Shown piece after piece: positions 1-27,200 of a DNA stretch of 62,513 nucleotides. Both the position numbers and the translations under genes were made by a program. How positions within the stretch are numbered: the first letter of the stretch is position 1; each line of letters starts with the position of its first letter. Below the pieces are notes generated by a model. That model made no database searches, was not told the DNA's origin, and saw only the letters and a list, made by a program, of their open reading frames with translations. The stretch spans positions 1 through 62,513 of the forward strand of contig CAYRXT010000013.1 in assembly GCA_964428315.1 (NCBI GenBank), written 5' to 3'. Origin of the DNA: an uncultured Planctomycetales bacterium (GTDB lineage: Bacteria > Omnitrophota > Gorgyraeia > Zapsychrales > CAYRXT01).

Positions 1-220
1 CCGAATTCCGAATTTCAGACGGATCAGAAAAGTTTTTGTCATTGCGAGCGACCAAAGGGAGCGAAGCAATCTCATAAAGATTATTCTGACAAAGATTGCT
101 TCGGCGCTCCTTGCCGTCGCTTCTCGCAAAGACGGAGAGGGTGTACGGTCTAAGGATTCGATATTCAGGATTGGGAATTTATTCGGGATTTGGGATTTGG
201 CATTGGGAATTTTGAAATCC
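1..220 (+). repeat. Palindromic interspersed repeat (PR element), copy 1, truncated by window edge
   Basis: Matches 1681-1900 almost base for base. It contains the hairpin GTCATTGCGAGCGACCAAAGGGAGCGAAGCAATC...GATTGCTTCGGCGCTCCTTGCCGTCGCTTCTCGC. The ends are inverted: CCGAATTCCGAAT vs ATTCGGGATTTGGGATTCGG. Confidence 0.9.
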
Positions 221-3200
221 AAAGGAGGTGAAAAATGGTTACCAAAGCGGATTATTTCGACCTGGCGTTCGATCATGTCATCGAGATCGCCCGACTCGAC
301 TGCGTCTTCGCGGCAACGCGCGAGCGCCGGACGGGCAAGACCCGGCTCTTCCTTATTTACAACCATACCGGCAAGGTTTATTTTCGCGATTCTCTTCGTG
401 ACAGGTGGGTTGAGCTGGAGGAGAGGGAGTACAACATCTTCCGTTCCCTCGCCGACCACGCCCTCATGGACCGCAGGATTCCCCGCCTCAGGACCGACGA
501 TATCCCTGATCTCAACTGAGCCGACCGGATGGCAGGGGACTCTCTCGGGTTGCGCCGATCCCCTCAGGCTGGTCCCCCTGGATATGGCGGTTTTTATCAT
601 CTGCTCCTGGCTGATGCTGAAACTGGACATCTTCTTCCTTGAGCGCGCCGCACGCAGGCGGTCCAGGGGTTACGTCACGGGACTGGCCCTGAGTCTGCTG
701 TTGACGTCTCCGTTAGTCGTGAAGTCAGCGCGGTGGATCAAAGGCGGCGGTTCGCCGGTTATACTGCCGGAAGGAACCTGCGCGGCCGTCGCGGGGGCCA
801 TTGGCCTTTCGGTATCGGGTCTGGAGCGGCTGATTACCGCCGTGACCCTCGTGGCGGCCGTCCTGATGTTCGACCACCTGTTTTTCAGAAAGATCTGGAA
901 AAGGTTTAAAGAGAGCAACCCCACCGCGGCGACCATAAACACGTTCCGTTCCCTGGCGAGGTTTGGGTTTATCATGTCGTCCCTCGCGGTTTGTGTCGCC
1001 ATAACGGTCATGGGGCCGGCGGCGCGGGATTCATCCGATCGGGAAAAGGCCGCATTGTCACAGGACAGCCGTCCCGCGGCGTTTTGCTCAGCGGAGCAGC
1101 TTGAGGCCGCGCTTGTGCGTATCAGCCGCACGTGGCGGGAGGAAGGCCGGTACCTTTTTATCAGCTTCCCGGACGGGCTTAACCTTTTTATTCCGCTGGA
1201 CGAGGCGGTACGGGCCATGGGGCCGAGGCCGTCGGACTCCGATGACAACGTGAGCGGCGTGACGTTGTTCACGACCTCGGGCGAAGATATCAGCACCAGG
1301 GCTGTCCTTACCCACGTTACTGCGGTCGTCCGCGATGGGCGCGTTTGCGAAGTCCTGCTTCCGGCCGGTGACAGGCGTTCCCGCCGGACGATACTGGACA
1401 TGGTGGAGAAACATGAGACCGGCTACAGCCTGGAAGGCAGACTGGTTCTGCCCCAAAATGACGATGACGATCAGATTAAAACCGTCGTGGAAGAACACAT
1501 CAAACAAAACCTGGTCAACGAGCGAATGAAGGTGAAAAAGGTTGTCATCGCCGGAGGAAGTTCCGCCCTTCACGCCGGCTTCGGGTTTGGGTGGATCAAG
1601 AAACTGTGGGCGGGGATTGTGAGGCTGGTCGGGAAGGAATCAGGAATGACAACTGACAGATGCCGAATAAATGTCGAATCCCGAATTCCGAATTTCAGAC
1701 GGATCAGAAAAGTTTTTGTCATTGCGAGCGACCAAAGGGAGCGAAGCAATCTCATAAAGATTATTCTGACAAAGATTGCTTCGGCGCTCCTTGCCGTCGC
1801 TTCTCGCAAAGACGGAGAGGGTGTACGGTCTAAGGATTTGATATTCAGGATTGGGAATTTATTCGGGATTTGGGATTCGGTATTGGGGATTTTGCAGTCC
1901 GCCTTGAGGATCCTGAGGCGGATGGTCCCGGCTTTGAGCTCCCGCGCCGCGGCGGTGTCGGCGTTCCTGACGGTCTTTTTCTTCAGCAGTGACCTGCTGG
2001 CGGCCGGAAACCAGGCCGCGAGGTCTTCCGGCCTGGAAGGCCTGGTGATCCTGCTGGCGCTGGTATGTGCAATGATAGAAAAAGCTGACCCTAATGGACC
2101 GGAAATCCGCGAATTGACGAAAGACGAATTGATAGAAAAAGCCATAAGTATTATCAGAAAGCATAATGAAAATAAAGGGGTTATGCCAAGTTTTGCAAAA
2201 ATCACGGTCCAGCCGGGTATGGACTACAGAAGGTTAGAAAAATGTCTATGGGACGTCTATCAGGGCTTGAAGTTGGAGGACATTTCATACGAGACATTTT
2301 TGTTGAAGATCCAATATGACCAATTCATAGGCGAAGAGAGGTGGTCATCTCTGCGGGATTTGGTGAATAATGTTTCAGAAGAAGTTTTGTCGTATTATGA
2401 AAAGCACGGAAAACTAATGAGGCTTCGCGCTATTAAGGATATTTCACGTGGCCAATACAATTTTATATATCCCCTTTTGGCAGAACGATTAATAAAACTT
2501 TTTGCAGAAGAAAAGAAAATCAGCGGCCAGAATCAGGAAGACATTGTTGTTATGATTCACAAAAAATTTAAAACGACAACAACCCGGCCTAATGCCGAAG
2601 AAAACCGGATGACGCTTTCCGGAGAGGGGTGGAAAAAACTGTTTTATGAGGCTGGGGCTGGAGCCGGATTTGATGATAAGAAGTATTGGGATACCCTGGC
2701 AGGGGGGATTGACAATTTGCACGTGGCCGAGACCCAAAGAAAGGTCATTTTTGCCGCGGCGAAAATCTTGAAAAAAGACGTTGATCCCGATGGACTTATC
2801 CGCGATTTTATTTGCTCGAAGGCATTTGTTTTCGGCTTGATCGAGGAATTCGCCGGATGGTTTTGGAATAAGAAGGTTGCTGGTTCGGCGGAGTCTCCCG
2901 GGAAAGGAGATTCAGGGACGGGCGGTATAGATCGCCGTATTATTTATTGGTCGACATTGGTAAGCAATACTCCTATTAACATGGAAAAAGCGTGCTTAGA
3001 GGCGACTGTGGAGTCTCTTTTAAGGGTTAAGGAAAGGCCCGTTGTTATTCGTATCGACTGGCAGAAAGCCCTCCAGTTCGTTGAATCATCCAGTATTAGT
3101 CTTTTCCGGGTTGTTTCTACCATCGGGACGCTTTTAGGAGGATTCGAGGGGCCGGAGCGCAAGTTTTTTGATGAAGCGGATATTGTTCTCAAGAACAAGG

Positions 3201-6200
3201 TTATTTCTCAATTGAATCCACGGTTGTGTCAATCCTTGGCCGAAGAGTTTATTAGTATGCTGGGCTGTCGCGGGGAGGACCGGTCAGTGGACTTATTTAA
3301 AAATTTAATGGACGATGATTCACGCCTGCATGTCCTACAGGAAATTTTTAAAGATTTCGTGGCGTCCCCAAGTACCCCTTCGAGATCGGGATCTAGCCGG
3401 GAAGAGATTGAGAAGGAAGACAAACGGAAAGACATTTTGAGATATTTCCTGCAGAGATGGTCTGGGGTATCCGTATTCGTAAAGGAAAACGCGGGGCATT
3501 TCACATTGTCCTCGATCCTGGCCGAGTACTTTTTAACCCTGTTAGAGGAAGAAAACCTTGATATGACTGATGAGAGCTTTTTTCCTGCGCAAAGGATTGG
3601 GAAGTTAGGGGAATACTTGGGAGAATACGAAGAAATCATTGAGAACCAGGGGGAACGCGTCCGGAGGATCGGTGAAGAACAGCAGAAGGTTTTACGCGAC
3701 GGCTGGAAAAAGCTTGAGCTGGATGGTGTCATAGAGGACTCTCTTAATCAAATTTTGAACAATGAGACGGAACTGGGATTTGACCTTGTGTTTGCGCGGG
3801 AGGTCTACCGGCGTCTGTTCAACAAAGAACTCGTTATCAAGCATGTGAGTGAATTCTTGACGATCCTTCAGCCCTTTTTGGATGAAAGCCCCCAGAAAAG
3901 TTCTCTGGAAGATGCGGTGTATATCGCAGAAAGACATTGTACGAGTAGGGAGCATGCGTTTATTTTGGTGATTGTGCCTATGGTTTGGGCGGTCATTCGC
4001 TTGAAAATTTTAAAAAAGTTTAAAGAATTGGGATTCAGGATTTGGAATGTGTCCGGGGTTCGGGATTTGTTATTTGGGATTATAAGCGGGGCCTTCGGCA
4101 CGACGAAAAACTTCGGAGTCCTGATGCGGGACTTCGCGGCATTCTTCCGGCGGCTGAAGACCTCGCCGCCTGCGCAGCCGCTTCAGGCCTTCTTCAAGCG
4201 TGACAGGAATTCCCGGGGCGTGAGGACGGGGATATGGCGGAACTTTTTTAAAGCCAGAAGATGGCTGTCGCCGGAGATGAACACGTTTGTGTCAATGACG
4301 GCTTTAAGCATGGTTCTCGCGGCAGGCCTTTATTTCTTCGGCAATGTCCTCGCTGGAGACGGGGAAGCGTTTCAGCCTCCGGTCGATCATCTTTTCGCTC
4401 TGCTGTATTTTAAGGTCAAGGCTTATTTTGATCATGTCGGGGGCCTTCGTATGTTTGTTAACCAATATAGCATGCGCCCCGGGAATAGGCAAGACAAGCC
4501 CGCGGATGCTGGTTTTGAAAAAGGAAGAGCCGTCGCCCTTCGCGCCGGCTTCGGGTTTGGGTGGATCAAGAAACTGCGGGCGGGGGTGGCGATAGCGGCG
4601 TTCATGTTTACGGCCTCGCCGTGTCTGGCCGGCGTTATCATGCCGCAGAAACAGCAGGGGGTGTGGGAAGGCCGGGTGCAGGGGATGATTATGATAATCC
4701 TGGGATTGTTATGGATTTATAATATTTGGAAAAAGTGGATAAGAGAACGCAAGATTTTGGAGAAGATGCAAGAAGCGGACGATGATTCGGATTTTGACGT
4801 GATGTCCGCCTTCTCCGGCGCCGAGGCGCTCCTCGCCCTCCTCGCGGCGGTGAAGAGGCTGTGGACGGCGGGCCTGAAGCTGGTCGGAAAGAAATCAGGA
4901 ATGACAACTGACAGATGCCGAATAAATGTCGAATCCCGAATTCCGAATTTCAGACGGATCAGAAAAGTTTTTGTCATTGCGAGCGACCAAAGGGAGCGAA
5001 GCAATCTCATAAAGATTATTCTGACAAAGATTGCTTCGGCGCTCCTTGCCGTCGCTTCTCGCAAAGACGGAGAGGGTGTACGGTCTAAGGATTTGATATT
5101 CAGGATTGGGAATTTATTCGGGATTTGGGATTCGGTATTGGGGATTTTGCAGTCCGCCTTGAGGATCCTGAGGCGGATGGTCCCGGCGAGCGCCGTTCTT
5201 TTTGCCATGGTTTGGGCCGTGGTTCACTGTGCAATGAGGCTGTTTGATGCTGACATCCCATGGGCCGACGAGGCCGCGGCCATGGGGATGGCGGTTCTTC
5301 CGAACGCGATCCTGAAAGATCAAAATCTTAAAAATCGCGCCGCGCAGGTCGTCCGCAGGTTCACGAGCCTCTTCCAGGATAATTCTGATTCGGTGCGTGG
5401 GAAAATCTTCGGCGGGGATTTTGTCCCGAGGCGTTATTCTGTTTATCTGAAACAGCTTGAGAGCGAAAGCGCTTGGGTGGAAGGCGATAGGGTCCTTGTG
5501 GACACGTACTTGGCCGCATGGTCGTCCGGACAAAGTTCTGAGGTGCTGTCATGTATGTGCCGCCGGGCCTCCATAAGGTATCACCTTGATCCAATAGAGG
5601 ATACGCATCCGTCGCCCGGACAGGTGCGGCTTCTTATTTTCACTTTGAAAATCACGAAAGCAAAGTTTCGGGGAAAGACAGCGGCTGATATGCACCGTCT
5701 TTTTTCCAGAAAGGACAACGCGGCTTCCTACGCCCTGTTTGAGAACCGCGTCTCTATGGACGGATTCTCCTGGTTGATGAATGACGAACCCGTCCGCGGG
5801 CGGGTGCTGAAGGCCGTTTGTGCCGCGGGGAACAGGACAGGTAATTTCTCGCTTTTCCTTGAGATCACCGCTCTCGGCCGGGAGGCCGAACCGGACATCC
5901 GGGTTCTGCACAGATTCATGGATAACTGTGACGGTTCGGACGAAAACATCGCGGCCCCATTCTTGAGTCTGCACGGGGACGATTTCCGGTTATACCGTTA
6001 TGTCATGGATACATTGAAGGTGAAGGAGGAGCGGGACCGTGGATCCCGAATATGGTCGGCCGGGCCCTCGCAGATAATCCCTCTTGTGACGAGCGGCTGT
6101 GATTCGCGAGAGGTCCAGGACCGCGCCGAAGATGTCCGGCCGTTTCTGCGTGTCCTGGAGGACTACGCGTCGCAGGCCGGGAGGCATTACAAAAACGGCA

Positions 6201-9200
6201 GATTACTAAAGGCCGTTATGTTTTACCGCATGGCATGGGACATTGTAAGATATCTGGACGGTCCCGGAGAACGCGTCAGCCCCCGCGGGCTGTCGCCGGA
6301 CCGGGACACGGGGAAGGCCGTCGCAAAGGCGAAGGCCTTAACGGCGTTCGGCTATCTGCATTCACTCGATCGCGCGGCGCTTCATCAGGAGGCCTCCGTC
6401 CGTATTACCGGTATCCCCCGACAGAACCGCGGCGTTATCCAGATGGAACATGCGGTCGTACACCTGGCTGGTGTCCTGAGAAATCTGGGAGAATATGAAG
6501 AGGCCTTGAAGCTGATGACCGCCTCCCCGGACGGCACAGAACTCCGGAAAGATATTGTTTGGATTCAGGCCCGGGACAAGGCTTTCACGCTTCTCATCCG
6601 CGTCTGGACGGAAATGGCCGAACGCGAGACGCAAGACTGGGAGGGTTTTATGCGGCGTTTTAAGGCTTTGATGACAGAAAGGAGAATCAGCAGGACAAGT
6701 TATGAAAAGAGACATGAAGAGCCCTTTGCATTTTCCGGCCGGGAAAGCAGGGCGGCGTCTCCTGTATTTCGCGGCAAGATGGATATAGAGACATTCGAAG
6801 GTGACCGGCGGGAGGTCCAGATTCCTTTTCCGTTTTCCGATCCGCTGGAGGCGGAGAAAACAATTTACCTGTTTGTCTTTCGTCTTATGCAGGCGGAGGA
6901 CTTCAAGAAAAGGTTAATCGGCAGTATTGACTATGGGACGCTTGCCGCAGAAGAGATGGCCAGGATCCTCGGGCTGAAGCCGAAAGAGGTTGATATGGAG
7001 TTTAATGCGGTGACTTGTGAGCATCAGTTTTTAACAAATAGCCTTTTGGTAAAGGAATTTCTTAGGACTGTCTGGTGCAAGCCGGTTGTTCTCGTCCGGT
7101 CCGGCGGTAAAACCTATTTGATAAGCGGCCGGATCATACAGACAGACAAAGAAAGCGCCCGACAACTTTTCGCCAGGACGCTTTACGATCACCTTCGTCT
7201 TGTCCCGTCCTCTTGTCTGCCGGACATGACAGAAGATTTCGAGGTTACCCTGTTGCCGAAGGATTTTGAGCGTCAGATTGTTCCTCTTGGATTAAACGGA
7301 CAGGGCGGGCGGGCGTGTACCGTCATGAAGGCCGGACCGGAACATGTCCTGGCAGGATTGGGCAGGGGACCTGTCGGTGACATAGCCCCGGACTTCCTGG
7401 ATTACGTGACGGTCTCGCGTTTGAACACGCTCATTTTTACGGAAGCGCTTCCTGATCAGGTCAAAGAGTTGTATCGGCTTCTTGTTGCTTCCGACGTGAA
7501 GGTGTTATGGATGACGGAACCGGCTTTCGTTTTGACTAAAGACTTATGGGAGCATGATGTAGTAGGGTCCAAAAAGGAATATTTGGGGGTTTCGCGCATT
7601 ATTAAAGACTTGTTGGAGACAATCGCGCATGTTCATTTTTCCCGGTGGTATAAGCTGGGTGATGAGCTGACACTGTTAGTTTCCCGGGCCGGAGGTTTGC
7701 CCGGCAACGGCATTCTGTTATTCGGCACGCCCGGGGGATTTATCATGGAGGCGGGTCCGCGTTCACTGAAAGGCTCGGTATTAACGGAGGACGCGCAGGT
7801 GCCTGGTTATCCGGTGGACTGCCTTGTGAAACGGGTCGCTCCTTTATCCGTTACGGGCGGTGAGACCAAAAACCGGAAAGAGGACCTGGCCGGTCATGTG
7901 GCGCGGGTCATCCGCCGGGGAGGACATGTCTTCATCAGCGCTTGCGCGGTCGGAGCAGCCCAGGAATTTCTGTCACTCCTGATCCAAAAGCAAAAGCAGT
8001 CCGGTTATCCGGAGTTTTCCGTCTATGTCGCGGGATCGGTCTCAAGCATCACGGATTTAATAGACCGATATCCGAGGGTTTTCCCTGTCCGTCCCGGGGA
8101 GAGGCAGCGGCAGGATCCGGGACATGTCTTCATTCATGGCCGCGGCCCGGTGCGGAAACTGGAGGCCTTGCCAGATATGAATAATGTATTGGGTGTGCCG
8201 GGGGTTTTTGTGGTTCCCGAGGACTGGCAGAAAAATCCGAAGTGCCGTTGGATTTTCCGTCGGGTGGCGGCCGGAGCGAAGAACATGGTTATTGATGACG
8301 GCCCACCGGGGCGGGGCCTTCCGTCCTGGACCGGCGGGCCCGGGATGCCCGCTGCTGTCACCGCCGAGACTCTGAAGACCGACATTCTGCCTCCCGACAA
8401 CCCGCAGGATACCGCCGCATTTATCCGAAACGTTGACCCGGCCAGGGTCATCATTACCGGGGTGACACCGCGAGGGGCCGGGCTGTGGAAGAGGGTTCTG
8501 GAGGACGGGCTGAATGGCAGCTATCGCATTGAGACGGCCCGGCCTATGGTCCCGATGCATTTACCATTATCCGCTGACAGAAAGACGCTATTCGATTCTA
8601 TACTAATGACAAAGGAAAGGGGCAGTTTTTACGGTTTATTCATGGCCGCCGAAGCCGCGCTGGCGTTTTGGGTTGCCGGGGTCCTGCGCGCGGCGGCGCG
8701 GCTTCTGTCCCTGCCCGGTTTCGCCGCCTGGTTCGCGCGGACACACACGCGGTTTAAATCACGAATGACAAATAACAAATACCGAATTCCGAATTTCAGA
8801 CGGATCAGAAAAGTTTTTGTCATTGCGAGCGACCAAAGGGAGCGAAGCAATCTCATAAAGATTATTCTGACAAAGATTGCTTCGGCGCTCCTTGCCGTCG
8901 CTTCTCGCAAAGACGGAGAGGGTGTACGGTCTAAGGATTTGATATTCAGGATTGGGAATTTATTCGGGATTTGGGATTCGGTATTGGGGATTTTGAAATC
9001 CGCCGCCGGAGTGGCGAAAAACTTCGGCGTCCTCGCGCGGGACTTCCTGACATTCTTCCGCCGGCTGAAGACCTCGCCGCCTGCGCAGCCGCTTCAGGCC
9101 TTCTTCAAGCGTGACAGGAATTCCCGGGGAGTGAGGATAGGGATATGGCGGAACTTTTTTAAAGCCAGAAGATGGCTGTCACCGGATACGATGAGATCGG

Positions 9201-12200
9201 CGCCTTCCATGGCCGCTTCCAGGAAACGGTTATCCTGGGGATCTTCTTTGATGACGGTTAATGTCCTGCGCGGTCTGACCGCCACGGCCTGGATATGGAT
9301 TGTTTCGATGAGTCTGGCGGCGATGTCGCGGGTGATGACGGGATGGAACTTCGGTCTTGACAGGACGTCGATGAGTTCTTTGAGCGTGGCCGGCGATATG
9401 ATGAGCTTGAACCTGTTGTTTTTTAACGCTGAGATGATCTTTCGGTTTGTGGAATCTTTGAGCAGGCCGGAGATGAACACGTTTGTGTCAATGACGGCTT
9501 TAAGCATGGTTCTCGCGGCAGGCCTTTATTTCTTCGGCAATGTCCTCGCTGGAGACGGGGAAGCGTTTCAGCCTCCGGTCGATGTCACTCAAAATGCCGC
9601 TCCAGCGCCGGCGGAGGGTCTTCCGTTCAAGGTTGCGGAGAAGTCTGAGTTTCTGCGTAACCGGAAGGCGGTCAATCATCTTTTCGATCTGCTGTATTTT
9701 AAGGTCAAGGCTTATTTTGATCATTTCGGGTGCCTCCGTGTGTTTATTAAGCAATATAGCATACAGCCCGGGAATAGGCAAGACAAGGGACGCCGTCGCG
9801 TCTTCTGGGCGGCGAGGAAGCTGTGGGCGGCGGTGGCGATAGCGGCGTTCATGTTTACGGCCTCGCCGTGTCTGGCCGGCGTTATCATGCCGCAGAAACA
9901 GCAGGGGGTGTGGGAAGGCCGGGTGCAGGGGATGATTATGATAATCCTGGGATTGTTATGGATTTATAATATTTGGAAAAAGTGGATAAGAGAACGCAAG
10001 ATTTTGGAGAAGATGCAAGAAGCGGACGATGATTCGGATTTTGACGTGATGTCCGCCTTCTCCGGCGCCGAGGCGCTCCTCGCCCTCCTCGCGGCGGCGA
10101 GGAGGCTGTGGGCGGCGGGCCTGAAGCTGGTCGGGAAGAAATCACAAATGACAAATGCCAAATGCCGAATAAATGTCAAATTCCGAATTCCGAATTTTGA
10201 ACGGGATCGCAAAGACGGAGAGGGTGTACGGTCTAAGGATTTGATATTCAGGATTGGGAATTTATTCGGGATTTGGGATTCGGTATTGGGGATTTTGAAA
10301 TCCGCCGCCGGAGTGGCGAAAAACTTCGGCGTCCTCGCGCGGGACTTCCTGACATTCTTCCGCCGGCTGAAGACCTCGCCGCCTGAGTGGACCGGACAAT
10401 TCCCCATCCCTCCGCTGGGTTGCCTTGCCGTCGCCTGTCCTTCCGCGGCCGGACTCAACTCTATCACAGGCTATTGGCCCTGGGCGGCCGGCATCCTGCT
10501 GTGGCTGGCCATCCGCCGGGCTGTTTTGCGTAACCGCATTCCCTCCTTCCTTGTCACCAACCGTACCGAGAGGCTAGAGGCCGTGGCGGCTGTTCGGTCA
10601 GCCATCAGAGAAGAGATCCCCGTTGGCGGATGGCAGACGGCTCCCCTCAGCTATCTGCAGTATATCGAGTGGCTTTTGTCGAGGCTTCCCGAAGAGCGGA
10701 AAAATATTGAAGGCATCCGGATTATCCCATGGTATCTGAGCTTTGGGTTTCTTACCGGCCGTTTGGGAGGATTTTCGAAGAAGTCAAACGTGTTGACGGT
10801 CGTGTATCTTCCTTTCGGGAAAGTGTTCAAGAGGATTTGGGACCACGAGACAATCCATGTCCTGCTGGAGCATAATACGGAAGGCCGCGAGGAATTTACG
10901 GAGCACTGCTGGCATAATGTGGACCGCAGTAACCTGCGGACAGTTTTGAAGCTCGGCCTTGAGGCCTTAGCCTCATTTATTATTAACGTGGCAGCCCAAA
11001 CCTTATTGCTTTCAGCCGTTTTGGCGCTCGAAGCGACAAAGGCGCTGAGTCTTGCCTTTTTGGGGTATGCTGTCGTGTTCCTGTTCACGGATACATTATT
11101 GTTCCGTTTTCTGCTCCTGCTGTTCAATCAAAAAATCGAGGAGGTGAAGATGGGAGAGTCAGCGCATATGGTGAGCCTTTACGCGTTGACAAACCCCGAC
11201 GAGGATGGAGCGGAAACCGGAGCCAGTATCCTGGCTGGAGAGACAGGCGTGTTGACGGAGGGGCCTCTTTTCGATAAAGCGGAAACACTCAAACAAAAAG
11301 TCATTAAGGACGAAGATTTGTGCGCCCTGATGGAAGGGGCGAGACGTTTTGCGCATTCGGCCGTTTCCTATACCCTGACGGTCCGCTCCGCGCTCGTTGC
11401 CAGCTTTCTGGGCCATGCGTGGGTCATTACTTTCCTGGCGGCGGGGATGGATTCGGATTTTCACTGGATCACGCTGAAAGCGGCGCTGTACGCCGCGTTG
11501 GTCATGGGCTTTGCGATACATGCTTCCCGGTTCCGATCCCGTTTTGGGATCAACAGCCGCCTGGCGGGCGTAGTGAGGATTTGGCATGACGCCATGCGGC
11601 CGGTTGCTTTCATCGCGGTTTTACTTAATCTGTTTATTTCCAGCCCTGTGGAAATGAAGATCAGGGAATATCTTTCAGAAAAGTTGAGCAGTGATCCGAA
11701 TTATTATATCAATTTGAGGATCCCGGGGCACGAGACGGAAAGGCCGGCTCGATTGATCCTGACGGACTGGCGGATGACTCCCGAAGACGCGTCAAGGGTT
11801 GAGATTGAACCGGAAGAATTCCGTGAGGAGGCCTCAGAGAAGCCGGCGCGTCAGGCCGCGCCGCAGCGCGCGGGCTGTTACAGGTTTGAGTGGCCGCGCA
11901 GTTATAATGTTGGCGGCAGATATATTCCGGATCCTTTTGCCAAGGACAGTTCGGATTTTGCGGAAGCGGGCTTTGCCGTGACCCTCATGGAATTCGGACC
12001 GGAGGACGACAACCTATGGCCTCCTCCTTACGGGAAGGCGGTCCTGCTGGACGATTTGTCTGAGTTCGAGGGAATACGGATCTCAGTCGAGAAAGCGGAT
12101 CCCGGTACAATAGAGTTGATTTTTACTCTTGTGGTGTATTGTAACGAAAGGGGCACCAGATATAGGTTTGCTGAAATTGTGCTGCCCTTAACATTGTCCG

Positions 12201-15200
12201 GCGAGGACAACCAGGTCCTGTATGTCCCCGTGGAAAGCCTGCCTAATTGCAAATGGAATTACGGTATAAAACTTTATTATTTGCAGTTCTTTTTCAGTCC
12301 GGCCGGCCAGACGCCCATCAGGGCCAGGATTAAAGAGATCGAGTTTGTGCCCAAGGCGGGGACGGCTTGCTCGGAGAGCCGCCCGATATCGTCTCAACCG
12401 GGTGTGTCAGAAGCGGAGACCGGAAAAGAAAACGCGTCCGCCCTTTACGCCGGCTTCGGGTTTGGGTGGATCAAGAAACTGTGGGCGGCGGTGGCGATAG
12501 CGGCGTTCATGTTTACGGCCTCGCCGTGTCTGGCCGGCGTTATCATGCCGCAGAAACAGCAGGGGATGTGGGAAGGCCGGGTGCAGGGGATGATTATGAC
12601 AATCCTGGGATTGTTATGGATTTATAATATTTGGAAAAAGCGGATAAGAGAACGCAAGATTTTGGAGAAGATGCAAGAAGCGGTCGATGATTCGGATTCA
12701 GGCTTGATGTCCGCCTTCTCCGACGCCGAGGCGCTCCTCGCCCTCCTCGCGGCGGCGAGGAGGATGCGGGCAAAAGTCTTGTCATTGCGGGGAGCCGCCG
12801 GGACATTGTCGCGCGAGATCGCCGTCACTGCGAGCGACCAAAGGGAGCGAAGCAATCTTTGTCAGAATGTAATTAATGTAATGAATGAGATTGCTTCGCT
12901 CTTCCGGACTCGCAATGACAGAAAGATTAATAAGCTGCTGTCCAGATTCTTGTCATTGCGAGCGACCAGCGGGAGCGAAGCAATCCCTGCTATTGTGAAG
13001 GCTTCTTCCCCTACGATTCGGCATTTGTCTGGCGCTTGGGATTCGGTATCGGGGATTTTGAAATCCGTGATGGCAGTTCACTTTATCGGGAGGCTGCCGG
13101 GCGCTTTGTTAACCTCTATCCGTGGCTGGTGGAGACAAAGACCGCGTAAACCGATAGCCTCCTTCCACTTTATTAGGTCAGGAGGGTGCGAAAGCTCGCA
13201 GTATTCGGATGCGTATTATGCTTCTTCTTTTGGACTGCTGGAATTCCTGCAATCGGCAAGTGGGCTCTTGCATATGGCACGTGTTGTTATTCAACGACTT
13301 GGCGGGGAAGAGAATCGGGTGACAATGGATCATGTCCATTATACAAGTAATGATGTGCAAAAAATTGATGAGCTGGCGGCTCATTTTAAAGAGAAAAATG
13401 CGGCCTGTACTGTACGGTATTGGAAGCAAGGAGGAAAGGCCGTCAGGGTTATGAGTCTTGAGAAGCCTTTGCAGCACGGTTCAGAACTTGGGGTGAAGAC
13501 GGTGATGATAACAACCCTGGACGGCGGGGAGGCGTGTGGAACGGAAGGGGGTTCATGGCAGGCCGGATTTTATTACAGGGGAAAGGCCGGGGATCTGAAA
13601 TTGCCGGAACCGTGGGGGGGTGTCGCTTATAAGGGATCGTCGTATGAGGTGAAAAGGAGAAATCCTTATGCGATTGAGGTGGAGAGCGGGGCAGACTTGT
13701 TCGTTATCAGAAGCCTGCCGCTGTGCGGAAAAGAGAAAGAAATCAAATTGATCAAGGCTCACATGGGCATGGTCAGGAAGATTGCTGCTAGTTCTGGCGG
13801 GAAAAAAAGAGCGGGCTTCAACGAGCTTGTTGCCGCGGGAAATTTGGGGCTGACAGAGGCCGCAAAAGCATTCGCCGTGGAAATAGGAGTTCAGTTTTAC
13901 ACATTCGCAGTCAGACGAATAAAGGGTGCAATAACAGATTATCTGAGAGCCCTAAGCTGTGGGAAAAGGAAGAGTCATGAATGGGTAACAAAGGACCTTA
14001 ACCCCTTTATAGAGCAGTTTGCCCAGGAGAACAGCCGGTTGCCGACGGAACAGGAGATCCTGGAAGGCTTGGGATGCACCGAAGCAGAGTCGCGCTACAG
14101 GATTGAAACCAGTTCTTTTCAATGGCCTAGTTTGCAGGATTCCTTTAGGAATAGCAAAGGCGAGGAATGCAGATCAATAACAATGGCGGATCGCATTCCT
14201 GACGGGTCTGTCGAATCACCCCTGGCTCACATGATTCATAAGGAGGATATGCGAAGAATTTGGAAAGCTTTTAAAGAAGTGGGAGGCAGGCAATGGAAGA
14301 GAAACAAGGAAATATTTATAATGTATTTTTACGACGGCCTCCCGTGTTGGGAAATCGCAGATTATTTTGGGCTAACAGAATCTGCGATCTCTTTGATTAT
14401 TACAAAAATAATAAAAAGTCTGCGAAAAACACTGGGGCGTGAAGACAGGGACGACGATCGGCCCGGCAGTCTGGATGCGACAGCCATGAAGGATTTGGCG
14501 GCGCGGCTTCTAGAGAGCGCGCTGAGAGGCTTCGGACAACCGGACCGCACTGTTCAAGAGGAGCGGGAAGGAATAATCCTAGAGCTTTTTTCAAATGTGA
14601 AAGGTGAAAAATCGAAAAGAGCCTTGATGATCATGAAAATGTTATATTTAGACGAATTACCACCGAAGCAAATCGCAAATCATTTTGAACTGACAACAGC
14701 CTGTATCAATGAGATTCGGGAGCGAATGATAGATGGAATAGAGATGGAAATATGGCGCCGGGAAGACAATAACGAGGAGGCCCAGAGTTTGACAGGACTA
14801 TTCCCCGTTACCGGCGACGGGCTGGCGCTCGCCATGGCCGCGGCGGTCATTCTCCTGGCGCGGCTGGTGTACGGTGTGCGCGCGGCCGGGAGATCCGCCG
14901 CGCTGGCGTACGGCATGGATGTCTTTGTCAAGGCGGTCAACGCGTTCAGCCTGCGCGGGGCGGACAGAGAAAGACTGGCCCGCGCGCGCGTCCTGGTCTT
15001 GGCCGGCGGCAGCGGCGCGGGGCGCTCCCATATCATCAGTCTTCTGATCCGGAACGGGAACGCCGGCCGCGGCAGGGAGGCCCGGCACCTGAGGCTCGTC
15101 ACCAGTCGGCCGGCCAGGAGCAGTGGAGATGACAAGGAATGCGTGTCCATGTTCCGTTTCCTTAGGATGATGTTCGGCGGAAAGCTTGTGGACGTTCGGT

Positions 15201-18200
15201 TCCATTGGGAAGAGCTGGCCTTCTACGCGTTCAGGAAAGACGCCATCCTCCGGGACGGCGAGGATGAGACCGTCTGGCTCGCGGACGTACTGAGGTTCGA
15301 AAGCTTCCTCAAACTCCAAAAGATCTTCCCGGACATCGCGCTGGTCTACATCTCTCCGTTGCCCGTCGAAGAGCTGGAAGACGGCACGGCGGCGCTGGAG
15401 GCCGAGCTGACCCGGCGGCTCAGGGCCAGAAACGGCGGCATGACAGAGGAAAAGATCAGGCGCAGGGTCCGTCTGAGCACGGTTGAGTATCACAAGTTTA
15501 TGCGGCATATGGATGAAAACAGCGGTGGCGTTATCTTCATCAACACGATCCCCGGCCCGGGCGGATGGACGATGAAGAGAAAGATAGCTGATTTTCAATA
15601 TTCATTTCCCGCGGCTGTCCGGCCTCCTGCGCCACTGCCCAACGGGCCGGAGGCTTCAATGACCCGGGACGGGCCCAATGCCGGGACACATCCGGCGAAA
15701 AGATGGGTGCGGGAGCCCGGCACCACCGGATTTCATGAAGGCCACGATCCCTTGGCCCATCATTGGCAGACTGCAAACAATAACTATATAGGTTTGAACC
15801 ATGCTTTTGACGCCGTGAATGGCAATGACGATAGAACTCCCGCCGGGGGGGGGATTGATCCTCTTGAGGGCGTCCGGATGATCCGGGCGGCGTTGCAAAA
15901 TCAGTATGGGGATGCGTCTCGGCGGGACGCCGCCCGCCCGGACGGTCTTCACAGCCTCCTCTTCTGGGGCGGGATGCTGGCGACCGGGGTCTTCTTCTAC
16001 CGGCTGGTCCGCTCTTCGCTGTTAAAGGACTCCCTGCTTGCAGGGCGAGTTCTCACTCCGACGGTATCGCTGGCCGGGCTGGCCGACCGGTTGTTATTCA
16101 GGAAGATCTGGAAAAAGTTCGGTGAAGGCAGCGCCTTCGTGGCGACCTTGAACACGTTCCGCAGGATACCAAGGCTCGGGCTCTTCCTTTTGGTCATCTC
16201 GGTCACCGTCGCGCTGGTGGGGAGCGCGCTTTCGGAGAGAAAGAAGAGATCTGTCCCCCTGCAACCTTCCGAGAAGGTTGAGCCCGCGCGGAGCGCCGGC
16301 ACGGCGCTGAGGAGCGTTGATGCGCTGAGCGGGATTATATTTATTGGATTAGCGGCTGTGACCGTGCTCATGGCCTGGTTCATTTCGATGTGGGAAGACT
16401 GGAAGCCGGCCCGGAATCGAGCGGTGAAGTATGCGCGCGTTACGGCAGGGTACGTGGTCATTATCGGTCTGGGCGCGTGGCTGACGGATAACTTGTTGGT
16501 GATGTTACTATTCAGTTCCATCGGGTATGGATTTTTATATACATGCTTCAGTGAATCGGGAGACCGTGGAGCAAATGACAGAAAGGTTTACACAATTTCC
16601 GATTTGATATTTGGGATTGGGAATTTGTCCGGTGCCCGGGATTGGTTTTTTGGGATTTTGAAACCCGCCTTGAGGCCCCTGAGGCGGATGGTCCCGGCTT
16701 TGAGCTCCCGCGTCGCGGCGGTGTTGGCGTTCCTGACGTCCTTCTTCTTCAGCAGTGGCCTGCTGGCGGCCGGAAAGCAGGCCGCGCGGTCTTCCGGCCT
16801 GGAAGGCCTGGTGATCCTGCTGGCGCTGGGCGTGGTCGCGCTGGGGATGTGCCGGTATCATGCGGCAAAACATGAAGAGGCGCCGGGCCTCTCCGACGCC
16901 GGCGAAATCATGCGCCGCTGGCTTTACGGACGGGAAGACCTCCTCGCGCTTGCCGGCGGTGACCCTGAGACCGCCGAGGAGGTCCTCAAGACCATCGAAC
17001 TGCTTACTGCCGAAGCGTCCGCGGCCGGAAAGAATATCCACCGGCAGGACGAAGAAGGGTTCACGGGAGGCCGGGACCGGTTCAGCGATGATTTGCAAAA
17101 CCGGGGTGTTTCCCATGGAGAACTGCTCGCGCTCATGGAGTCTCTCAGGGAGAAGGCGGGCCGGGCCGCCGCAACCGGGGTGGAGTTGAAGGAGGAGGCG
17201 GACCTTGTGCGGTGCGGCCAGGAGGCGCGGACCGGCGTTTCCATGGCGAAATGGATCGGATGGGCGACTATTGCCGCCGGGCTCGTCGGACTGTTCGGCC
17301 GGCTGGCGCTGACCGGAGTGGTGGAAGCCGGCATCTCCTGGCTGGCCGGCGGCATAATTGTGGCCGGGGCGGCCACAATTCTCCTGGACCTGGTTGTCCT
17401 GGGGTGGGACGGTTTCGTTGAGAGCCTGAAGGAAGAGAGGGCCGCAGAAGATGTCGGGGCGCGCCGGACAGCCCGGCTCCTGAAACGGGCATGGCTGACC
17501 GCCGGTATTATATTCCTGGCCTTTCTGGCGGCGGCGGCCCTGACGGTGCCGGGGCTGTTCGGGGAAGCGATGGCGGGTGCGGCCGTCCAGAAGGCGGCCC
17601 TTTCGTCGGGCATCCTGGGGCTTATCAGCATCGCCGTGGGCCTGGGATACGGGAAGGCCGAAGAAGGCTCGTTCCAGATGAACCTGCGTTCGGGGCGGTT
17701 GTTCCGGTTCTTCATGTTCGCCTTGGCGGCGTTCATGGCCGGGTCCATGGCGGTGGACGCGGCACAGGCCTTTGCCGCGGGCCCGGCGCCGGACGCGGAC
17801 GGCGGCGCGGATGGTGACGGGGGGCTGTCCCCGTCAGGGGACCCCTCCGAAGGAGGAGCTGTGTCTCCGGCAGAAGGCGTAGTGCCGGCTGTGGACCGTC
17901 CTCAGCCGGACACGCCGCGGGAGGAGGGGCCGGAAGAAATGGCGCTGACGGATGCCCCTGCGAAAGAGCCGGTCTCCGTTGTTACGCAGGAGACGCGGGT
18001 GAATCCGGCGCGGGATCCGGAAAAGGCGTCCGCTCCGGACGGTACCAAAGGCACAGTCATATCCGCCGGAGATGACGGCGGGGATTCCTTCCTGTCGCGC
18101 GCGCGGGATTTTGCCGCGAAGGTCTGGGACGGCGTTTCTTTTGTGGGCACTGCCGCGGCGGCCGAATCCTCCCCGGCGGCCGGGCCGCCTTCGCCGCCTT

Positions 18201-24200: not shown

Positions 24201-27200
24201 GCCTTAGGGGTGACCGCGCGATGGCTTCTCAGCCGGCGTTTTACCTGGGGAATCTTTCTGATGGGGCCAGAGGGGAGATTGAGGATCATTTCATGGGAGG
24301 GCTGTATTCAGAGTTCCAGGAGCAGGGGACGATCATTCCGAAGGGATATAAGGAGGTTCATACTGTCGTGATGCGCGGGCCGTTTTTTCATGCACCGGAT
24401 GTCTTTATCTTCGGCATAGAGACGGGCGGATCTTTCGGGTGTAAGGAGAGCAGGAAGTTATATATCTGCTATTCCCCGAAGGCCCGGCAAATATTCATGG
24501 ACCAGGCTCAAATCCTGGTTGAGTCTGGAGGGGAACGGCTGTGTAAAGTTCTGTATAACGCCGTTCGCATTCACGAAGGCGTCGAGATAAGGCTGTTGGC
24601 CCGGGGGTACTCTTACGGATATGCGCATGGGATAGCCCTTACCGAAGAGCGCGGGTACACGGCTGACTATCCGGAAATCCAAATGGTCTTGGAGTGGATA
24701 AGAAGGCGATACTCGGACAATTGGGAGGGGTCCTTCGGGGACGCGCGTGAGCCCGCCGGAAATGCCGGATTTAAGTACGCCGACGCGTCCCTGTTGTCCG
24801 ACTGGGAAGGCTTCACGCCGGGAAGGGCGGCGCGATCTGCTCCGGCGCGCACGCGGGACGCATCCGCGGACACGGCGTCCGGGGAAGAAGGACCTCTTTT
24901 CCGCGGCCTGACCATGGGCGGTATTTACGATTATATCGCCCTGCTGAGGGAATACAAAGACACTGTTGTCCGCGCGTATTTTGGTTCTCCCGACCGGGCC
25001 GCGAGGGCGGCGGACATCCGGGAGGGTTACGCCGAAATGGTCCGGATCGTGCTCCGGGAAAAAGGCGTGCCCGGCGACCCGCTCGAATACGTCGTCGCGT
25101 CTTATGCAGGGGAATGGATGACGGGCGAGGCGGTCTTCGGGTTCACCCGGCAAGAGGCGGATTCAATCCTGACCGGGAAAGACTACGCGTACAGCCGCGC
25201 CCCGGTCGGCCGGCTTTATTCTCTTCTCGAGGATTGCGCGGACAGGCAGTCGTGGAACACGCGGTATTCGGTCACCCAGGTCCTTGTGCAATCAGGGCGC
25301 GTCGCGTTCGCGGAAGACGCGCAGGAGCGTTTCGGCCGCCTGTCCAGAAAACATGAAGGTAACAGGTTTGTGGGTATCAGGGAGGACGCGCCTTATATTG
25401 ATATGAATGTGTACACGCGGGAATACATTTTGCAAGTTAAGGGAAGCGGGATCGGGCTTTACCTTCCCGTGTCCACGGACCCGTCCCGGCCCCGGCTGAA
25501 GCCTTTCGACGACGTCGACACGCTGATGACTTATCTGGAAACCGCGATGCGGGCGCAGGAAGGCGGCGACAGGGAGACGGCCCTGCTTAATCTTAAGAAC
25601 GCCCTGTGGCGCGCGGAGAAGATCGACGAGGCCGACGGGAACGGATGGTGGAAACGGCTGATCATCGCGGACAAGGTCATTGAGTTCATCCGGGACTATA
25701 TCGAGCAGTATTTGAGCCCGGACAAAGAGAAAAGGCATGAGCCCGCCGGAGAAATATTCTACGGACAGAAGGGAGGCAGGAGCGGGCCGGTTATGGCCTC
25801 GGTGGCGGCGGGCTGGGCGCCGCTGATGGCGCGGGCGGCCGCCTGGCTCGCGGGGTTTGTGATGCCGGACCAAAACAGGTGCGGTTTGCCTCCGGCGGCT
25901 GAGAGGTCCGGGCTGTCGGTCCGGTATGTCTCCCGCGAGAACGCCGGGTCATTCATCGATGCGGGAGATCCGTCCGCCGGGCCGGGCGTCGGCATCGTCT
26001 ATAAAGACAGACAAGGCGCTGACAAACCCGGCGTCTTTTGCGTCTACGATACCGGCGGCCGGAAGGTTTATGAAACAATGGAGGTCTATCCGGAGGCCGG
26101 GCGCTGGGACTTCTTCTGGAGGGGGACGGATGCGTGCGGCAGCCGCGTGCCCGACGGAGTTTACCTGGTAAGCTTCCGTTCGGACGCGAAGACGGCCCGC
26201 GCGAAGGTCGTTTCCTTCCTGTCCATGGAAGAGGCGCTGGAAGACGCGTTTGAACGCCTTGCCTGGAATTTGAGAAAGGACCTGACCGCCGCGGTCGCCT
26301 TGGTCCAGAAGGATACCGCCGGGCTCGCGATAACCGGGGATCTCACGATAGAGGCGGCATTTCGCCTGAATAGTTGGACGCGCGCCGCGTCCGGTTACCT
26401 GGCCGGGAACGAGGAGATCGATTTCGGCCGCCTGAAAGAGCGGGCCCTGTTCGATATCGATCTGGGCCTGTACCTGGAGAGAAACGGGTGGGAGCCGCTG
26501 AATAGTTGGACGCGCGCCGCGTCCGGTTACCTGGCCGGGAACGAGGAGATCGATTTCGGCCGCCTGAAAGAGCGGGCCCTGTTCGATATCGATCTGGGCC
26601 TGTACCTGGAGAGAAACGGGTGGGAGCCGCGCGGCGCGGATTCCCTCATCGTGTTCAAGGACCGGCAGGGCTTCCCGCCGGTGTCCTGGGCAGAGCGGTC
26701 GCAGTACAGGAAGATAAAAGACATCCTGGAGCTTATGATTGGCGCGGGTTTCAGGTCCTGCGGCCCGGACGTCCGGCCGGACGCATTGCTCGCCTTCGGC
26801 GAGATGGAAACGGTCGTGGACAGCCTCAAGGGGTCCTGCCGCGGGTTGTCGCTGGTCTACGACGCGTACGCCCATGCCGCGGGGCTTGATGTCCAGATGC
26901 GGGAAAGCTGCGGTGGATCTGATTCGGCCTGGGACCACGTCTTTTTGACCGTCCGGGACAGCGCGTCCGGACTGACCTATCTCGTCGAGACTAACGACGG
27001 TGAGTGCGGCCTTGTCACCTTCGGTTTCATATGGGAAGAGGTCTTTCAATGGAAGTTTTCCGCGAACTGCTTCATCCGGAAAGGGCCGCTGACGGTCACC
27101 GTCATAAAAGAAGAAAACGGCGGGCGGCAGGTTCGTACCTTGCAGATATCCGACAAGTTCTATCACAGCGTGAGGAAGAGTTTTCCCGTCCGGGATTACA

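Follow-up and report, generated by a model that had tools for sequence, protein, structure and literature searches.

Length differences in multiples of three among linker repeats of a giant open reading frame carrying antisense toxin-antitoxin genes

Giant ORF and composite linker repeats

The window analyzed here, an entire contig of 62,513 nt, is occupied by a single giant ORF on the plus strand. Within this ORF lie several copies of a composite linker repeat:

2-62464, plus strand: giant ORF of at least 20,820 codons, without an in-frame stop until the TGA at 62462-62464
1-302, plus strand: linker L0, at the edge of the contig; has the inner hairpin plus the right arm and shares its phase with the internal copies
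1562-1932, plus strand: linker L1; junction block, left arm, inner hairpin and right arm, without the 285-nt TM module
4018-5190, plus strand: linker L2 (the 4.2-kb copy); full nested palindrome at 4895-5160, TM module at 4570-4869
8770-10385, plus strand: linker L3/L4; intact antisense VapB/PIN operon, TM module at 9817-10116
12424-13067, plus strand: linker L5; TM module at 12475-12774, then a rearranged hairpin region
16601-16829, plus strand: linker L6, diverged; right arm and hydrophobic segment, 89% identical to 1835-2063

The ORF either starts at ATG 584 or is truncated by the contig edge. The other sense frames, +1 and +2, contain 880 and 840 stops, respectively (one per ~72 nt), with a longest open run of 648 nt, and codon usage ranked the giant frame best in 402 of 414 segments (97%). 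Pfam domains detected in the giant ORF were Sigma70 r2/r4, TPR, BNR, fn3, Peptidase_S8, FlgD_ig/Por_Secre_tail, FG-GAP, FBPase and RelA_SpoT. Scanning for stretches with a Kyte-Doolittle value of at least 1.6, a cruder predictor than DeepTMHMM, yielded 60 hydrophobic segments. In region 1574-10303, unique protein-like segments of 1.3 to 3.6 kb alternate with the composite repeat copies, and >50 kb of the ORF remains downstream. Searches with segments 5192-8770 and 8771-10387 detected no homologs. This region is likely to be the 5′ part of a giant multidomain, multipass-membrane ORF of the kind found in Omnitrophota.

At the nucleotide level, the linker repeat is a mosaic of three elements. The first is an imperfect palindrome with a nested structure, in which outer arms of ~55 nt enclose a REP-like inner hairpin, GTCATTGCGAG...CTCGCAA(A/T)GAC; the second is a VapB/PIN_3 operon encoded by the opposite strand, of which the only intact copy is that at 9094-9781; and the third is a TM module of ~100 codons encoding hydrophobic helices. 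Linker L2 consists of a diverged right arm, antisense remnants of the PIN and antitoxin genes, the TM module and the palindrome, in that order, while L3/L4 has a palindrome with the inner hairpin, the VapB/PIN operon, the TM module and a second palindrome (10139-10295) lacking the inner hairpin. The 1,302-nt TA and TM unit of L3/L4 (8905-10206) is associated with perfect 179-nt direct repeats (8905-9083 is identical to 10207-10385). The palindrome folded better than shuffled sequences (z = −5.4), had no match in Rfam at gathering thresholds, and was also present in unrelated genomes (loci L037, L087 and L001); no RAYT-type or other transposase was seen with the palindromic repeats. Identity between copies was patchy, with 100% tracts beside tracts of 70 to 90%, and near-identical stretches extended up to 335 nt at 97% and 179 nt at 100%.

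Antisense toxin-antitoxin genes

Three toxin-antitoxin (TA) loci and one decayed TA operon are located antisense to the giant ORF:

9094-9507, minus strand: intact PIN_3/TIGR00305 toxin gene
9500-9781, minus strand: VapB-like antitoxin gene, with a probable start codon (ATG) at 9721 and an 8-nt overlap with the PIN start
4183-4492, minus strand: decayed TA operon; delta-PIN at 4183-4311 (42 codons) and delta-antitoxin at 4304-4492 (62 codons), both open
36806-37323, minus strand: second TA operon; HicB-like gene at 37039-37323, HicA at 36806-37042
40760-41647, minus strand: third TA cluster; DUF433 at 41396-41647, DUF5615 PIN-like at 41036-41389, weak CopG/BrnA-like ORF at 40760-41035

An initial sequence-only reading had identified the PIN and antitoxin genes, correctly as judged by profile matches, homologs, invariant residues and paired neighbors. 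The PIN gene matched PF13470 (E = 3.4e-23, profile positions 1 to 114 of 115) and TIGR00305 (63.7 bits versus a cutoff of 29). Its product had 416 homologs, the best at 66% identity, and retains all of the invariant residues, including the catalytic acidic ones. The antitoxin matched the VapB15 family with an E value of 1.2e-7, under the curated cutoff; antitoxin homologs were found directly upstream of PIN in L001 and L018, and homologs of 79 to 80 amino acids were present upstream of every close PIN homolog. A promoter-like −35/−10 pair lies on the upstream side of the antitoxin at 9781-9753. By its gene content, this pair is a predicted type II VapBC module. The HicB/HicA operon matched PF07927 (E = 1.3e-16) and PF15919 (E = 3.2e-11), and the third cluster matched PF18480 (E = 6.5e-21), PF04255 (E = 9.7e-20) and PF12441 (E = 5e-5, below the cutoff); HicAB and DUF433/DUF5615 thus each comprise neighboring genes that pair a toxin with an antitoxin Pfam domain. 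The pN/pS ratio in the PIN frame was 0.2 to 0.46. These are genuine TA genes subject to purifying selection. The PIN gene is phased such that its wobble positions coincide with those of the giant frame on the opposite strand.

Length differences between linker copies

Four length differences between linker copies had been reported, each a multiple of three nucleotides (3n). Global alignment of 3990-5200 with 8900-10320 (indels 1 to 3) and BLAST offsets (indel 4) located all four where they had been placed, with lengths of 285, 93, 99 and 285 nt:

9181-9465, unstranded: indel 1, 285 nt, covering PIN residues ~15 to 109; absent from L2 at 4270
9584-9676, unstranded: indel 2, 93 nt within the antitoxin; absent from L2 at 4388
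4960-5058, unstranded: indel 3, 99 nt net, left arm and loop of the inner hairpin; absent at 10197-10206
4586-4870, unstranded: indel 4, 285-nt TM module present in L2, L3 and L5; absent from L1

The junction of indel 1 has a CCGGA microhomology. Indel 2 was aligned as 9582-9674, which is equivalent to 9584-9676 because of a flanking CGGTC(G/A)AT microhomology. The indel 3 segment is present in L2, L0, L1 and L3, and its absence from the remaining copy was ascribed to deletion because the right arm keeps its last 10 nt (TCGCAAAGAC) at 10197-10206; this retained sequence ruled out an empty site. Indel 4 is bordered by the imperfect direct repeats AAGAAACTG(T/C)GGGCGG and AAGAGGCTGTGGACGGCGG. 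BLAST paired 1564-1615 with 4534-4585 (offset 2,970) and 1598-1932 with 4853-5187 (offset 3,255), placing the junction in L1 within the 18-nt overlap 1598-1615.

Further length differences of −42, 60, 105 and 1,302 nt were also all 3n, and the offsets of ungapped same-strand HSPs were 3n in 47 of 52 cases. The other five were not. The generalization that all indels are 3n held for the four named indels and failed in the 12.4- to 13.1-kb linker, where chains of 359 and 74 nt (each 2 modulo 3) both cross an extra hairpin arm, 12947-12985, whose reading phase is unlike that of all other copies. The L5 arm GTCA(T/C)TGCGAGCGACC... has a phase-0 occurrence starting at 12824 and a phase-2 occurrence at 12952.

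The sequence-only reading had assigned a probability of (1/3)^4, or 1/81, to four 3n indels arising by chance. This value disregards the setting in which the copies were found, an ORF already known to be open. Within this ORF, 3n lengths are forced because the other two sense frames are full of stops: non-3n versions of the four deletions would encounter a stop 4 to 205 nt downstream, and a compensated frameshift was possible only for the pair of indels 1 and 2. Given the open ORF, the probability of four of four being 3n is about 1/2, and the four indels carry no independent weight. Counting them as 3n only says again that the ORF is open, and the statistic is ordinary. Luck, with the long ORF as a by-product of four unconstrained indels, would draw on the small sample size and nothing else; 20,820 stop-free codons against 840 to 880 stops in the other sense frames is not a chance outcome, and the stop-free property recurs on independent contigs, leaving this explanation with a negligible probability.

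The lengths of indels 1 and 2 could instead have been set by the antisense TA frames, through production of in-frame toxin and antitoxin variants. Deletions of 3n stay in frame on both strands, and the 42-codon delta-PIN and 62-codon delta-antitoxin are open. Indel 1, on the other hand, removes ~95 of 137 PIN residues, the invariant E44 and D92 among them, and hence there is no PIN function left to protect in delta-PIN. Indels 3 and 4 lie outside the TA genes, and non-3n versions would cut the giant ORF short within 8 to 205 nt. Control by the TA frames is, on this evidence, extremely improbable.

Conservation of the open frame

Among linker paralogs, the giant-frame pN/pS was 0.9 to 3 (up to 10 in one block) with no third-position excess, in comparisons that were mutually nonindependent and involved few substitutions (2 to 39 per block). 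The same hairpin DNA is translated as VIASDQRERSNL at one place and as SLRATSGSEAI at another, and reading in two phases was observed both in the window and in L087, indicating that openness is kept rather than the peptide. A search of 5.8 billion proteins with the 539-amino-acid linker translation returned zero homologs. The giant frame is also stop-free across all seven antisense TA genes (VapB/PIN_3, HicB/HicA, DUF433/DUF5615 and CopG-like); a synonymous-recoding null gave probabilities of 0.10 to 0.48 per gene and a joint value of 1.6e-5 for the seven.

These data bear on the possibility that the linkers are functional protein modules, such as TM hairpins and spacers, with selection acting on their amino acids and 3n indels reflecting modular loss or gain of domains. 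Strong hydrophobicity is seen in the TM module and in several linker stretches, numerous TM regions have been reported for giant Omnitrophota proteins, and indel 4 takes out a whole module between the similar peptides IKKLWAG and VKRLWTAG. The pN/pS values, the translation of one hairpin in two phases and the lack of a database homolog all point the other way, as does the origin of some of the "peptide", which comes from conserved PIN and antitoxin codons read in reverse complement. Selection for protein modules was hence considered unlikely, and the linker peptides evolve neutrally. The proposal that the preserved frame is the sense giant frame, even through junk-like translation, survived these analyses, although the 3n argument advanced for it did not; the openness is instead backed by the linker pN/pS, the two-phase hairpin, the seven stop-free TA genes and the PIN homologs described below.

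Related loci in other metagenomes

In other metagenomes, the same antisense phase was stop-free in 8 of 8 distinct close PIN homologs versus 6 of 79 distant ones (Fisher's test, 5e-8). The null probability of a stop-free antisense frame in the close PIN genes was 0.014 to 0.095 per gene and ~1e-17 jointly, with synonymous sites saturated; shared ancestry could be part of the cause of this clade-wide property. One antisense frame was open along the entire contig in L083 to L088 and L091, and L090 carries a VapB/PIN cassette inside a 3,124-codon ORF. The more distant L001 is spanned over its whole contig by a stop-free frame (at least 7.3 kb), and the strand facing that frame encodes VapB/PIN, HicAB and an AF2212-like antitoxin. 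Omnitrophica or Omnitrophota was the annotation given to the closest PIN homologs and look-alike loci. By analogy with these, the host of the window may be a member of Omnitrophota; the window contains no marker gene.

Misjoins or collapsed repeats in a short-read contig could also have generated the linker copies and their apparent indels. The window is a whole contig that begins inside a linker, and the order of its unique segments rests on assembly across near-identical linkers. The only other assembly of the locus, L081 from Logan SRR7048225, matches it at 100% identity over 168-1601, and its breaks coincide exactly with linkers L0 and L1; fragmentation of giant-gene assemblies by repeats has been described by West-Roberts et al. 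(10.1101/2023.11.21.568195). An artifact is nevertheless very unlikely, since the junction microhomologies (5 to 18 nt) are below the usual assembly k-mers, the copies also differ by scattered substitutions, TA versions with distinct flanks are present in both decayed and intact form, and a linker with an antisense TA cassette occurs in eight other independently assembled contigs.

Proposed explanation

The linker copies would diverge through patchy gene conversion and through deletions, which in three of four cases are bounded by short direct repeats and presumably arose by slippage or recombination. Survival would be limited to variants in which the giant frame stays open, through either 3n deletions or paired frameshifts over a stretch that is stop-free in a second phase. 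The 3n pattern would then be the mark left by purifying selection to keep translation of the giant ORF uninterrupted, and we consider it probable that selection acts in this way and not on the linker peptides. As deduced from the sequence, the selective agent would be translation of the giant ORF from end to end, or transcription coupled to that translation.

More tentatively, the VapBC clade may be a specialized resident of giant ORFs, placed antisense in interdomain linkers and keeping the host frame stop-free via the coinciding wobble phase, such that the cassette is "translated through" and does not interrupt the giant gene. It would probably move with the palindromic repeats, and the HicAB and DUF433/DUF5615 modules would join it here. 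On this reading, the conserved openness of the cassettes would be direct evolutionary evidence for obligatory end-to-end translation of such giant ORFs. In that case, TA cassettes may be addiction modules guarding a repeat-rich giant gene against recombinational deletion, and the flanking palindromes may serve as recombination sites for adding new in-frame segments. More remarkable than the 3n lengths is that neither palindromic repeats nor intact antisense TA operons interrupt the frame of this giant gene, a property shared with several other giant genes of the Omnitrophota type.

Comparison with known systems

Like type II VapBC modules, the window operon is an overlapping pair with the antitoxin first, conserved PIN acidic residues, a promoter-like site upstream and homologous pairs in many genomes; unlike them, the operon and its closest homologs lie wholly inside a stop-free ORF on the opposite strand. 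In sedentary chromosomal integron arrays, unrelated cassettes are separated by imperfect palindromes, and interspersed, sometimes inverted, TA cassettes are thought to stabilize the array. The 1,302-nt TA and TM unit between its perfect direct repeats may be analogous to such a cassette, although the window "cassettes" are fused in one reading frame; no integrase domain was among the Pfam matches of a general domain scan of the window, and no attC signature was noticed. The linkers resemble REP and MITE repeats in being imperfect nested palindromes with copies dispersed at the nucleotide level and in several unrelated genomes, but REP and MITE repeats are intergenic, whereas all linker copies are inside the open giant frame, in phases that differ between copies. 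Embedded antisense genes and synthetic "entangled" genes, such as relE encoded within ilvA (bioRxiv 10.1101/2023.02.27.530340), likewise place two protein-coding frames on one DNA, with a toxin nested in a larger gene; here, in contrast, nothing in the overlapping part of the host frame points to a conserved peptide, and only openness is required.

Published giant genes of Omnitrophota include the "multi-enzyme metabolic cluster" giant ORFs and the Archaeovorins (West-Roberts et al. 2023; Nielsen & Lui 2026). For Omnitrophota giant ORFs, transcription as a single mRNA and proteomic detection have been reported, together with numerous TM regions, many tiled enzyme domains and assemblies broken at repeats (10.1101/2023.11.21.568195; 10.64898/2026.06.07.730766). 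The window ORF is similar in having >20,000 codons, tiled unrelated Pfam domains (sigma-70, FBPase, RelA/SpoT, subtilase and TPR), dozens of hydrophobic segments and assembly-breaking repeats, and its product could be processed by the subtilase. The word "antisense" has zero occurrences in West-Roberts et al. (10.1101/2023.11.21.568195), and antisense genes within ORFs are mentioned neither there nor by Nielsen & Lui (10.64898/2026.06.07.730766), in which TA genes figure only as flanking genes or hypervariable-region cargo; nested antisense TA cassettes in giant ORFs appear to be undescribed. The window differs from most full-length Omnitrophota giant genes in that no SecA DEAD-like domain (PF07517) was detected in the giant ORF at an E value of ≤1e-3, the gene possibly continuing upstream of the contig, and in its GC content, which is 55% compared with 34 to 46% in the related loci.

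Results

Linker copies and their length differences

The window is a whole public contig of 62,513 nt and was covered almost completely by one sense reading frame of at least 20,820 codons, which runs without a stop from nt 2 until a TGA at 62462-62464; the two remaining sense frames contained 880 and 840 stops, with a longest open run of 648 nt. With a codon-usage log-likelihood model trained on part of this giant ORF, the giant frame ranked first in 402 of 414 sliding windows. Pfam matches comprised Sigma70 r2/r4, many TPRs, BNR/Ycf48, fn3, CARDB, Peptidase_S8, three internal FlgD_ig/Por_Secre_tail domains, FG-GAP, NosD, FBPase and RelA_SpoT, and a crude hydropathy scan detected 60 hydrophobic segments. 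The ORF matches the 'multi-enzyme', multi-pass giant ORFs reported for Omnitrophota (10.1101/2023.11.21.568195; 10.64898/2026.06.07.730766), the phylum to which we infer that the contig belongs. Rfam and tRNA scans of the window gave zero matches, and GC skew was strongly positive throughout.

Repeat comparison within the window located six copies of a composite repeat, termed linkers (a palindrome with an inner hairpin, an antisense VapB/PIN_3 operon and a TM module), within the first 17 kb between unique segments of 1.3 to 3.6 kb. The sequence-only reading had described four length differences between them, and alignment and block offsets agreed exactly with the claimed places and lengths.

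Linker copies and the deletions that distinguish them
1-302, linker copy
1562-1932, linker copy
4018-5190, linker copy
8770-10385, linker copy
12424-13067, linker copy
16601-16829, linker copy
9181-9465, deletion 1, 285 nt
9584-9676 (equivalent placing 9582-9674), deletion 2, 93 nt
4960-5058, deletion 3, net 99 nt, inner hairpin, missing at 10197-10206
4586-4870, deletion 4, 285 nt, TM module, missing at 1598-1615

Microhomology or imperfect direct repeats (CCGGA; CGGTC(G/A)AT; CTG(T/C)GG.CGG) were present at three of the four deletion junctions and would fit slippage or illegitimate recombination. The hairpin-less copy retained the final 10 nt of the right arm and is, therefore, a deletion derivative rather than an empty site. 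Perfect direct repeats of 179 nt (8905-9083 = 10207-10385) bracketed a 1,302-nt unit containing the antisense toxin-antitoxin (TA) operon, the TM module and the left palindrome arm, hinting at a recent duplication or a (single-crossover) insertion; recombination between these repeats would remove the unit in frame. One identical Logan contig was found (assembly of SRR7048225), and the Logan assembly breaks exactly at the near-identical linkers; the order of segments across these linkers is putative. A search of metagenome contigs for a 25-mer of the right palindrome arm gave no exact match, and peptide-pattern searches of genome and metagenome contigs and a search of the protein database revealed no relative of the unique segment 5192-8770.

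Deletion lengths and the giant frame

All four lengths are divisible by three (3n), for which a chance probability of (1/3)^4 had been proposed. This argument was circular, as the copies compared all came from an ORF whose openness was established beforehand; given that openness, the probability of four 3n lengths out of four is about 1/2, not 1/81. After a +1 or +2 shift, respectively, a stop is encountered within 8 or 141 nt for deletion 1, 205 or 23 nt for deletion 2, 35 or 27 nt for deletion 3 and 4 or 38 nt for deletion 4. Only deletions 1 and 2 could compensate each other, since phase +2 is stop-free in the 118 nt that separate them. The 3n count is by itself nothing new, since a living ORF keeps its indels in frame.

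The 3n pattern stood for these four lengths and was incomplete in a census of the window, where 47 of 52 ungapped same-strand repeat matches had 3n offsets and five had offsets of 2 mod 3. Each of the five involved an extra hairpin arm at 12947-12985, where GTCATTGCGAGCGACC...GAAGCAATC gives the translation LSLRATSGSEAIP; in the remaining hairpin-arm copies, one of them 128 nt upstream, the translation is V(I/T)ASDQRERSNL. As this arm is stop-free in phases 0 and +2 and is read in both, the rule is 'no stop' and not 'same frame'. The identification of the giant frame as the one preserved was nonetheless right, despite the circular statistics behind it, and the 3n indels are what purifying selection to keep the giant ORF unbroken would be expected to leave behind.

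Antisense TA genes within the giant ORF

Several TA genes were detected on the strand opposite the giant ORF; this count of nested antisense genes is a minimum.

Antisense TA genes in the window
9094-9507, minus strand, full-length PIN_3/TIGR00305 toxin (profile matches)
ATG at 9721, minus strand, VapB15-like antitoxin, upstream of PIN and overlapping its ORF (profile match)
36806-37323, minus strand, HicB/HicA operon (Pfam), giant frame stop-free across it
41036-41647, minus strand, DUF433/DUF5615 operon (profile matches), giant frame stop-free across it
40760-41035, minus strand, CopG/BrnA-like ORF (weak match) beside DUF433/DUF5615

The PIN toxin had 416 homologs (best identity, 66%) and every invariant residue, and homologs of the antitoxin lie directly upstream of PIN in other genomes. 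A promoter-like site precedes the operon at 9781-9753, and the 4.2-kb linker copy carries a decayed form of the operon. Exact look-ups of the PIN, HicA and DUF5615 products found no record of them, presumably as a result of the giant ORF having been called in their place. Long minus-strand ORFs (605, 473, 406 and 364 aa) and several others were discarded as spurious, having no Pfam match.

Under a recoding null in which protein sequences were kept and synonymous codons were redrawn from the codon usage of the window, the giant frame was open with a probability of 0.10 to 0.48 per TA gene and of 1.6e-5 for seven genes jointly. Relative to the TA codons, the giant frame was at offset 0 or 2 in every case and never at the stop-rich offset 1.

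Openness opposite TA cassettes in other contigs

An open antisense frame was present in only 6 of 79 distant PIN_3 genes from GTDB genomes. One of the six, in L001 (an Omnitrophica bacterium from Hainich groundwater), lies in a contig in which this frame is stop-free over all 7,364 nt, running opposite three TA modules in 7.3 kb (VapB-like/PIN, HicB/HicA and an AF2212-like antitoxin); the L001 PIN has one internal stop. Contigs were also fetched for the closest PIN homologs (57 to 66% identity), of which L083 to L091, like L001, are of Omnitrophota type. In L083 to L088 and L091 (0.6 to 4 kb; GC, 0.34 to 0.43), one opposite-strand frame had zero stops over the whole contig and the remaining frames had 17 to 129. 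The L090 cassette, or antisense VapB/PIN pair, was within a 3,124-codon ORF (frame open for at least 9.4 kb) with putative kinase-like, TPR, sigma-70-like, GNAT and HD-type regions, read by eye from the translation. The frame was open for 1,032 nt in L089 and over the cassette only in L082.

Antisense stops numbered zero at offset 2 in all eight distinct close PINs and zero at offset 0 in all their antitoxins, the same phases as in the window. The difference between the close (8/8) and distant (6/79) PINs was significant (Fisher, 5e-8), and a recoding null with the cassettes' own codon usage gave 0.014 to 0.095 per gene and about 1e-17 jointly, for clade members that share ancestry. Synonymous divergence among the cassettes was saturated (pS, 0.6 to 0.9) and the PIN frame was constrained (pN/pS, 0.2 to 0.46); hence, openness cannot be simply inherited.

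Along 1,440 nt that include the cassette, L083 and L084 shared 99.4% identity, beyond which their flanks were unrelated, as is also seen for the dispersed linkers in the window. L083 and L085 differed by a 1-nt gap, which sits at the extreme edge of a contig and is unusable as an indel. The inner hairpin recurred beside the cassette in the L087 giant frame, where the alternative phase is used (SSLRAAKESEAIQPEIASSLSLLAMT). REP-like 'junk' peptides (CHSRESGNPE, SLAMTG, ASSPVARVKGIASSP) were read in frame at ~1-60 of L087, the end of the giant-frame strand, and in the L001 giant frame. Translated-through palindromic repeats thus seem, from these reading frames, to be general in such giant ORFs.

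Constraint on the linker peptide

Substitutions between paralogous linker blocks were spread evenly over giant-frame codon positions (e.g., 14/11/14 and 9/8/9), and pN/pS in this frame was 0.6 to 1.8, and higher in the TM module, in comparisons that were overlapping and based on small numbers. The 539-aa sense translation of linker 8771-10387 had no homolog among 5.8 billion proteins. The giant-frame translation opposite PIN includes the stretch FVSMTALSMVLAAGLYFFGNVLAGDGEAFQPPVD. The even substitutions, the pN/pS values and the lack of a homolog suggest, without being conclusive alone, that the linker peptide is unconstrained and that only continuity of the frame is retained.

In the right hairpin arm, CAATGAC is altered to CAAAGAC by a T-to-A substitution; judged by phase, this substitution does not remove an in-frame TGA. 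Between the outer palindrome arms (4895-5160, 8770-8993 and 10139-10295), 10 G.U mismatches (sense strand) were observed versus 3 A.C. This excess could reflect RNA structure in the giant mRNA or merely strand-biased mutation, and the signal was too weak to argue for structure at the RNA level.

Implications for giant genes

Those who described the giant genes of Omnitrophota raised the question of whether ORFs of 20,000 to 150,000 codons are really read as one unit. The giant frame was open through DNA whose translation appears to evolve neutrally and through whole opposite-strand operons, as in about eight other contigs of 34 to 46% GC, in which openness by chance is very unlikely. Taken together, these contigs provide comparative evidence that uninterrupted translation is under selection. 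The inter-domain linkers are crowded with DNA-level repeats and antisense TA cassettes, which would be tolerated only when the giant frame stays open. The cassettes may be tolerated passengers, stabilisers of a repeat-rich gene or markers of the recombination sites that build it. These findings point to giant-gene linkers as a previously unnoticed niche for selfish elements. They also suggest an annotation problem: nested TA genes are missed where the giant ORF is called, as apparently occurred for this contig, and, conversely, called TA genes cut the giant ORF short.

Other features of the giant ORF

FlgD_ig/Por_Secre_tail domains (T9SS C-terminal sorting) usually sit at the end of a protein. 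The three inside the giant ORF were at ~32.2-32.5, 36.3-36.6 and 48.4-48.6 kb, each followed by a linker, and a Peptidase_S8 domain was at ~33.4-34.2 kb; the interior position of the sorting domains would fit proteolytic cleavage of the giant product.

A 94-aa ORF at 235-519 (plus strand; frame +2 relative to the giant frame) had the top codon-usage score among non-giant frames, and the score of the giant frame was negative across this region. Public records list this ORF as a gene (P0121), the only product on record among those looked up, and it had no Pfam or NCBIfam match. One possibility is that it overlaps the giant gene as a sense-strand gene; another is that the true start of the giant gene is ATG 584.

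At 26366-26630, 132 nt (44 codons, including ...NSWTRAASGYLAGNEEIDFGRLKERALFDIDLGLYLERNGWEP...) are perfectly duplicated in tandem and in frame, either through a very recent event or through an error of assembly. Three further families of dispersed near-identical repeats, all with 3n offsets, were 39107-39264 = 40601-40758 (100%), 44213-44448 ~ 48656-48891 (95%) and 32363-32489 ~ 36452-36578 (98%). Some of the further dispersed repeats resemble REP-like palindromes of other types that are read in frame, e.g., ...ENGDGTCLS... and ...GTGPFDGPFKGTAPV....
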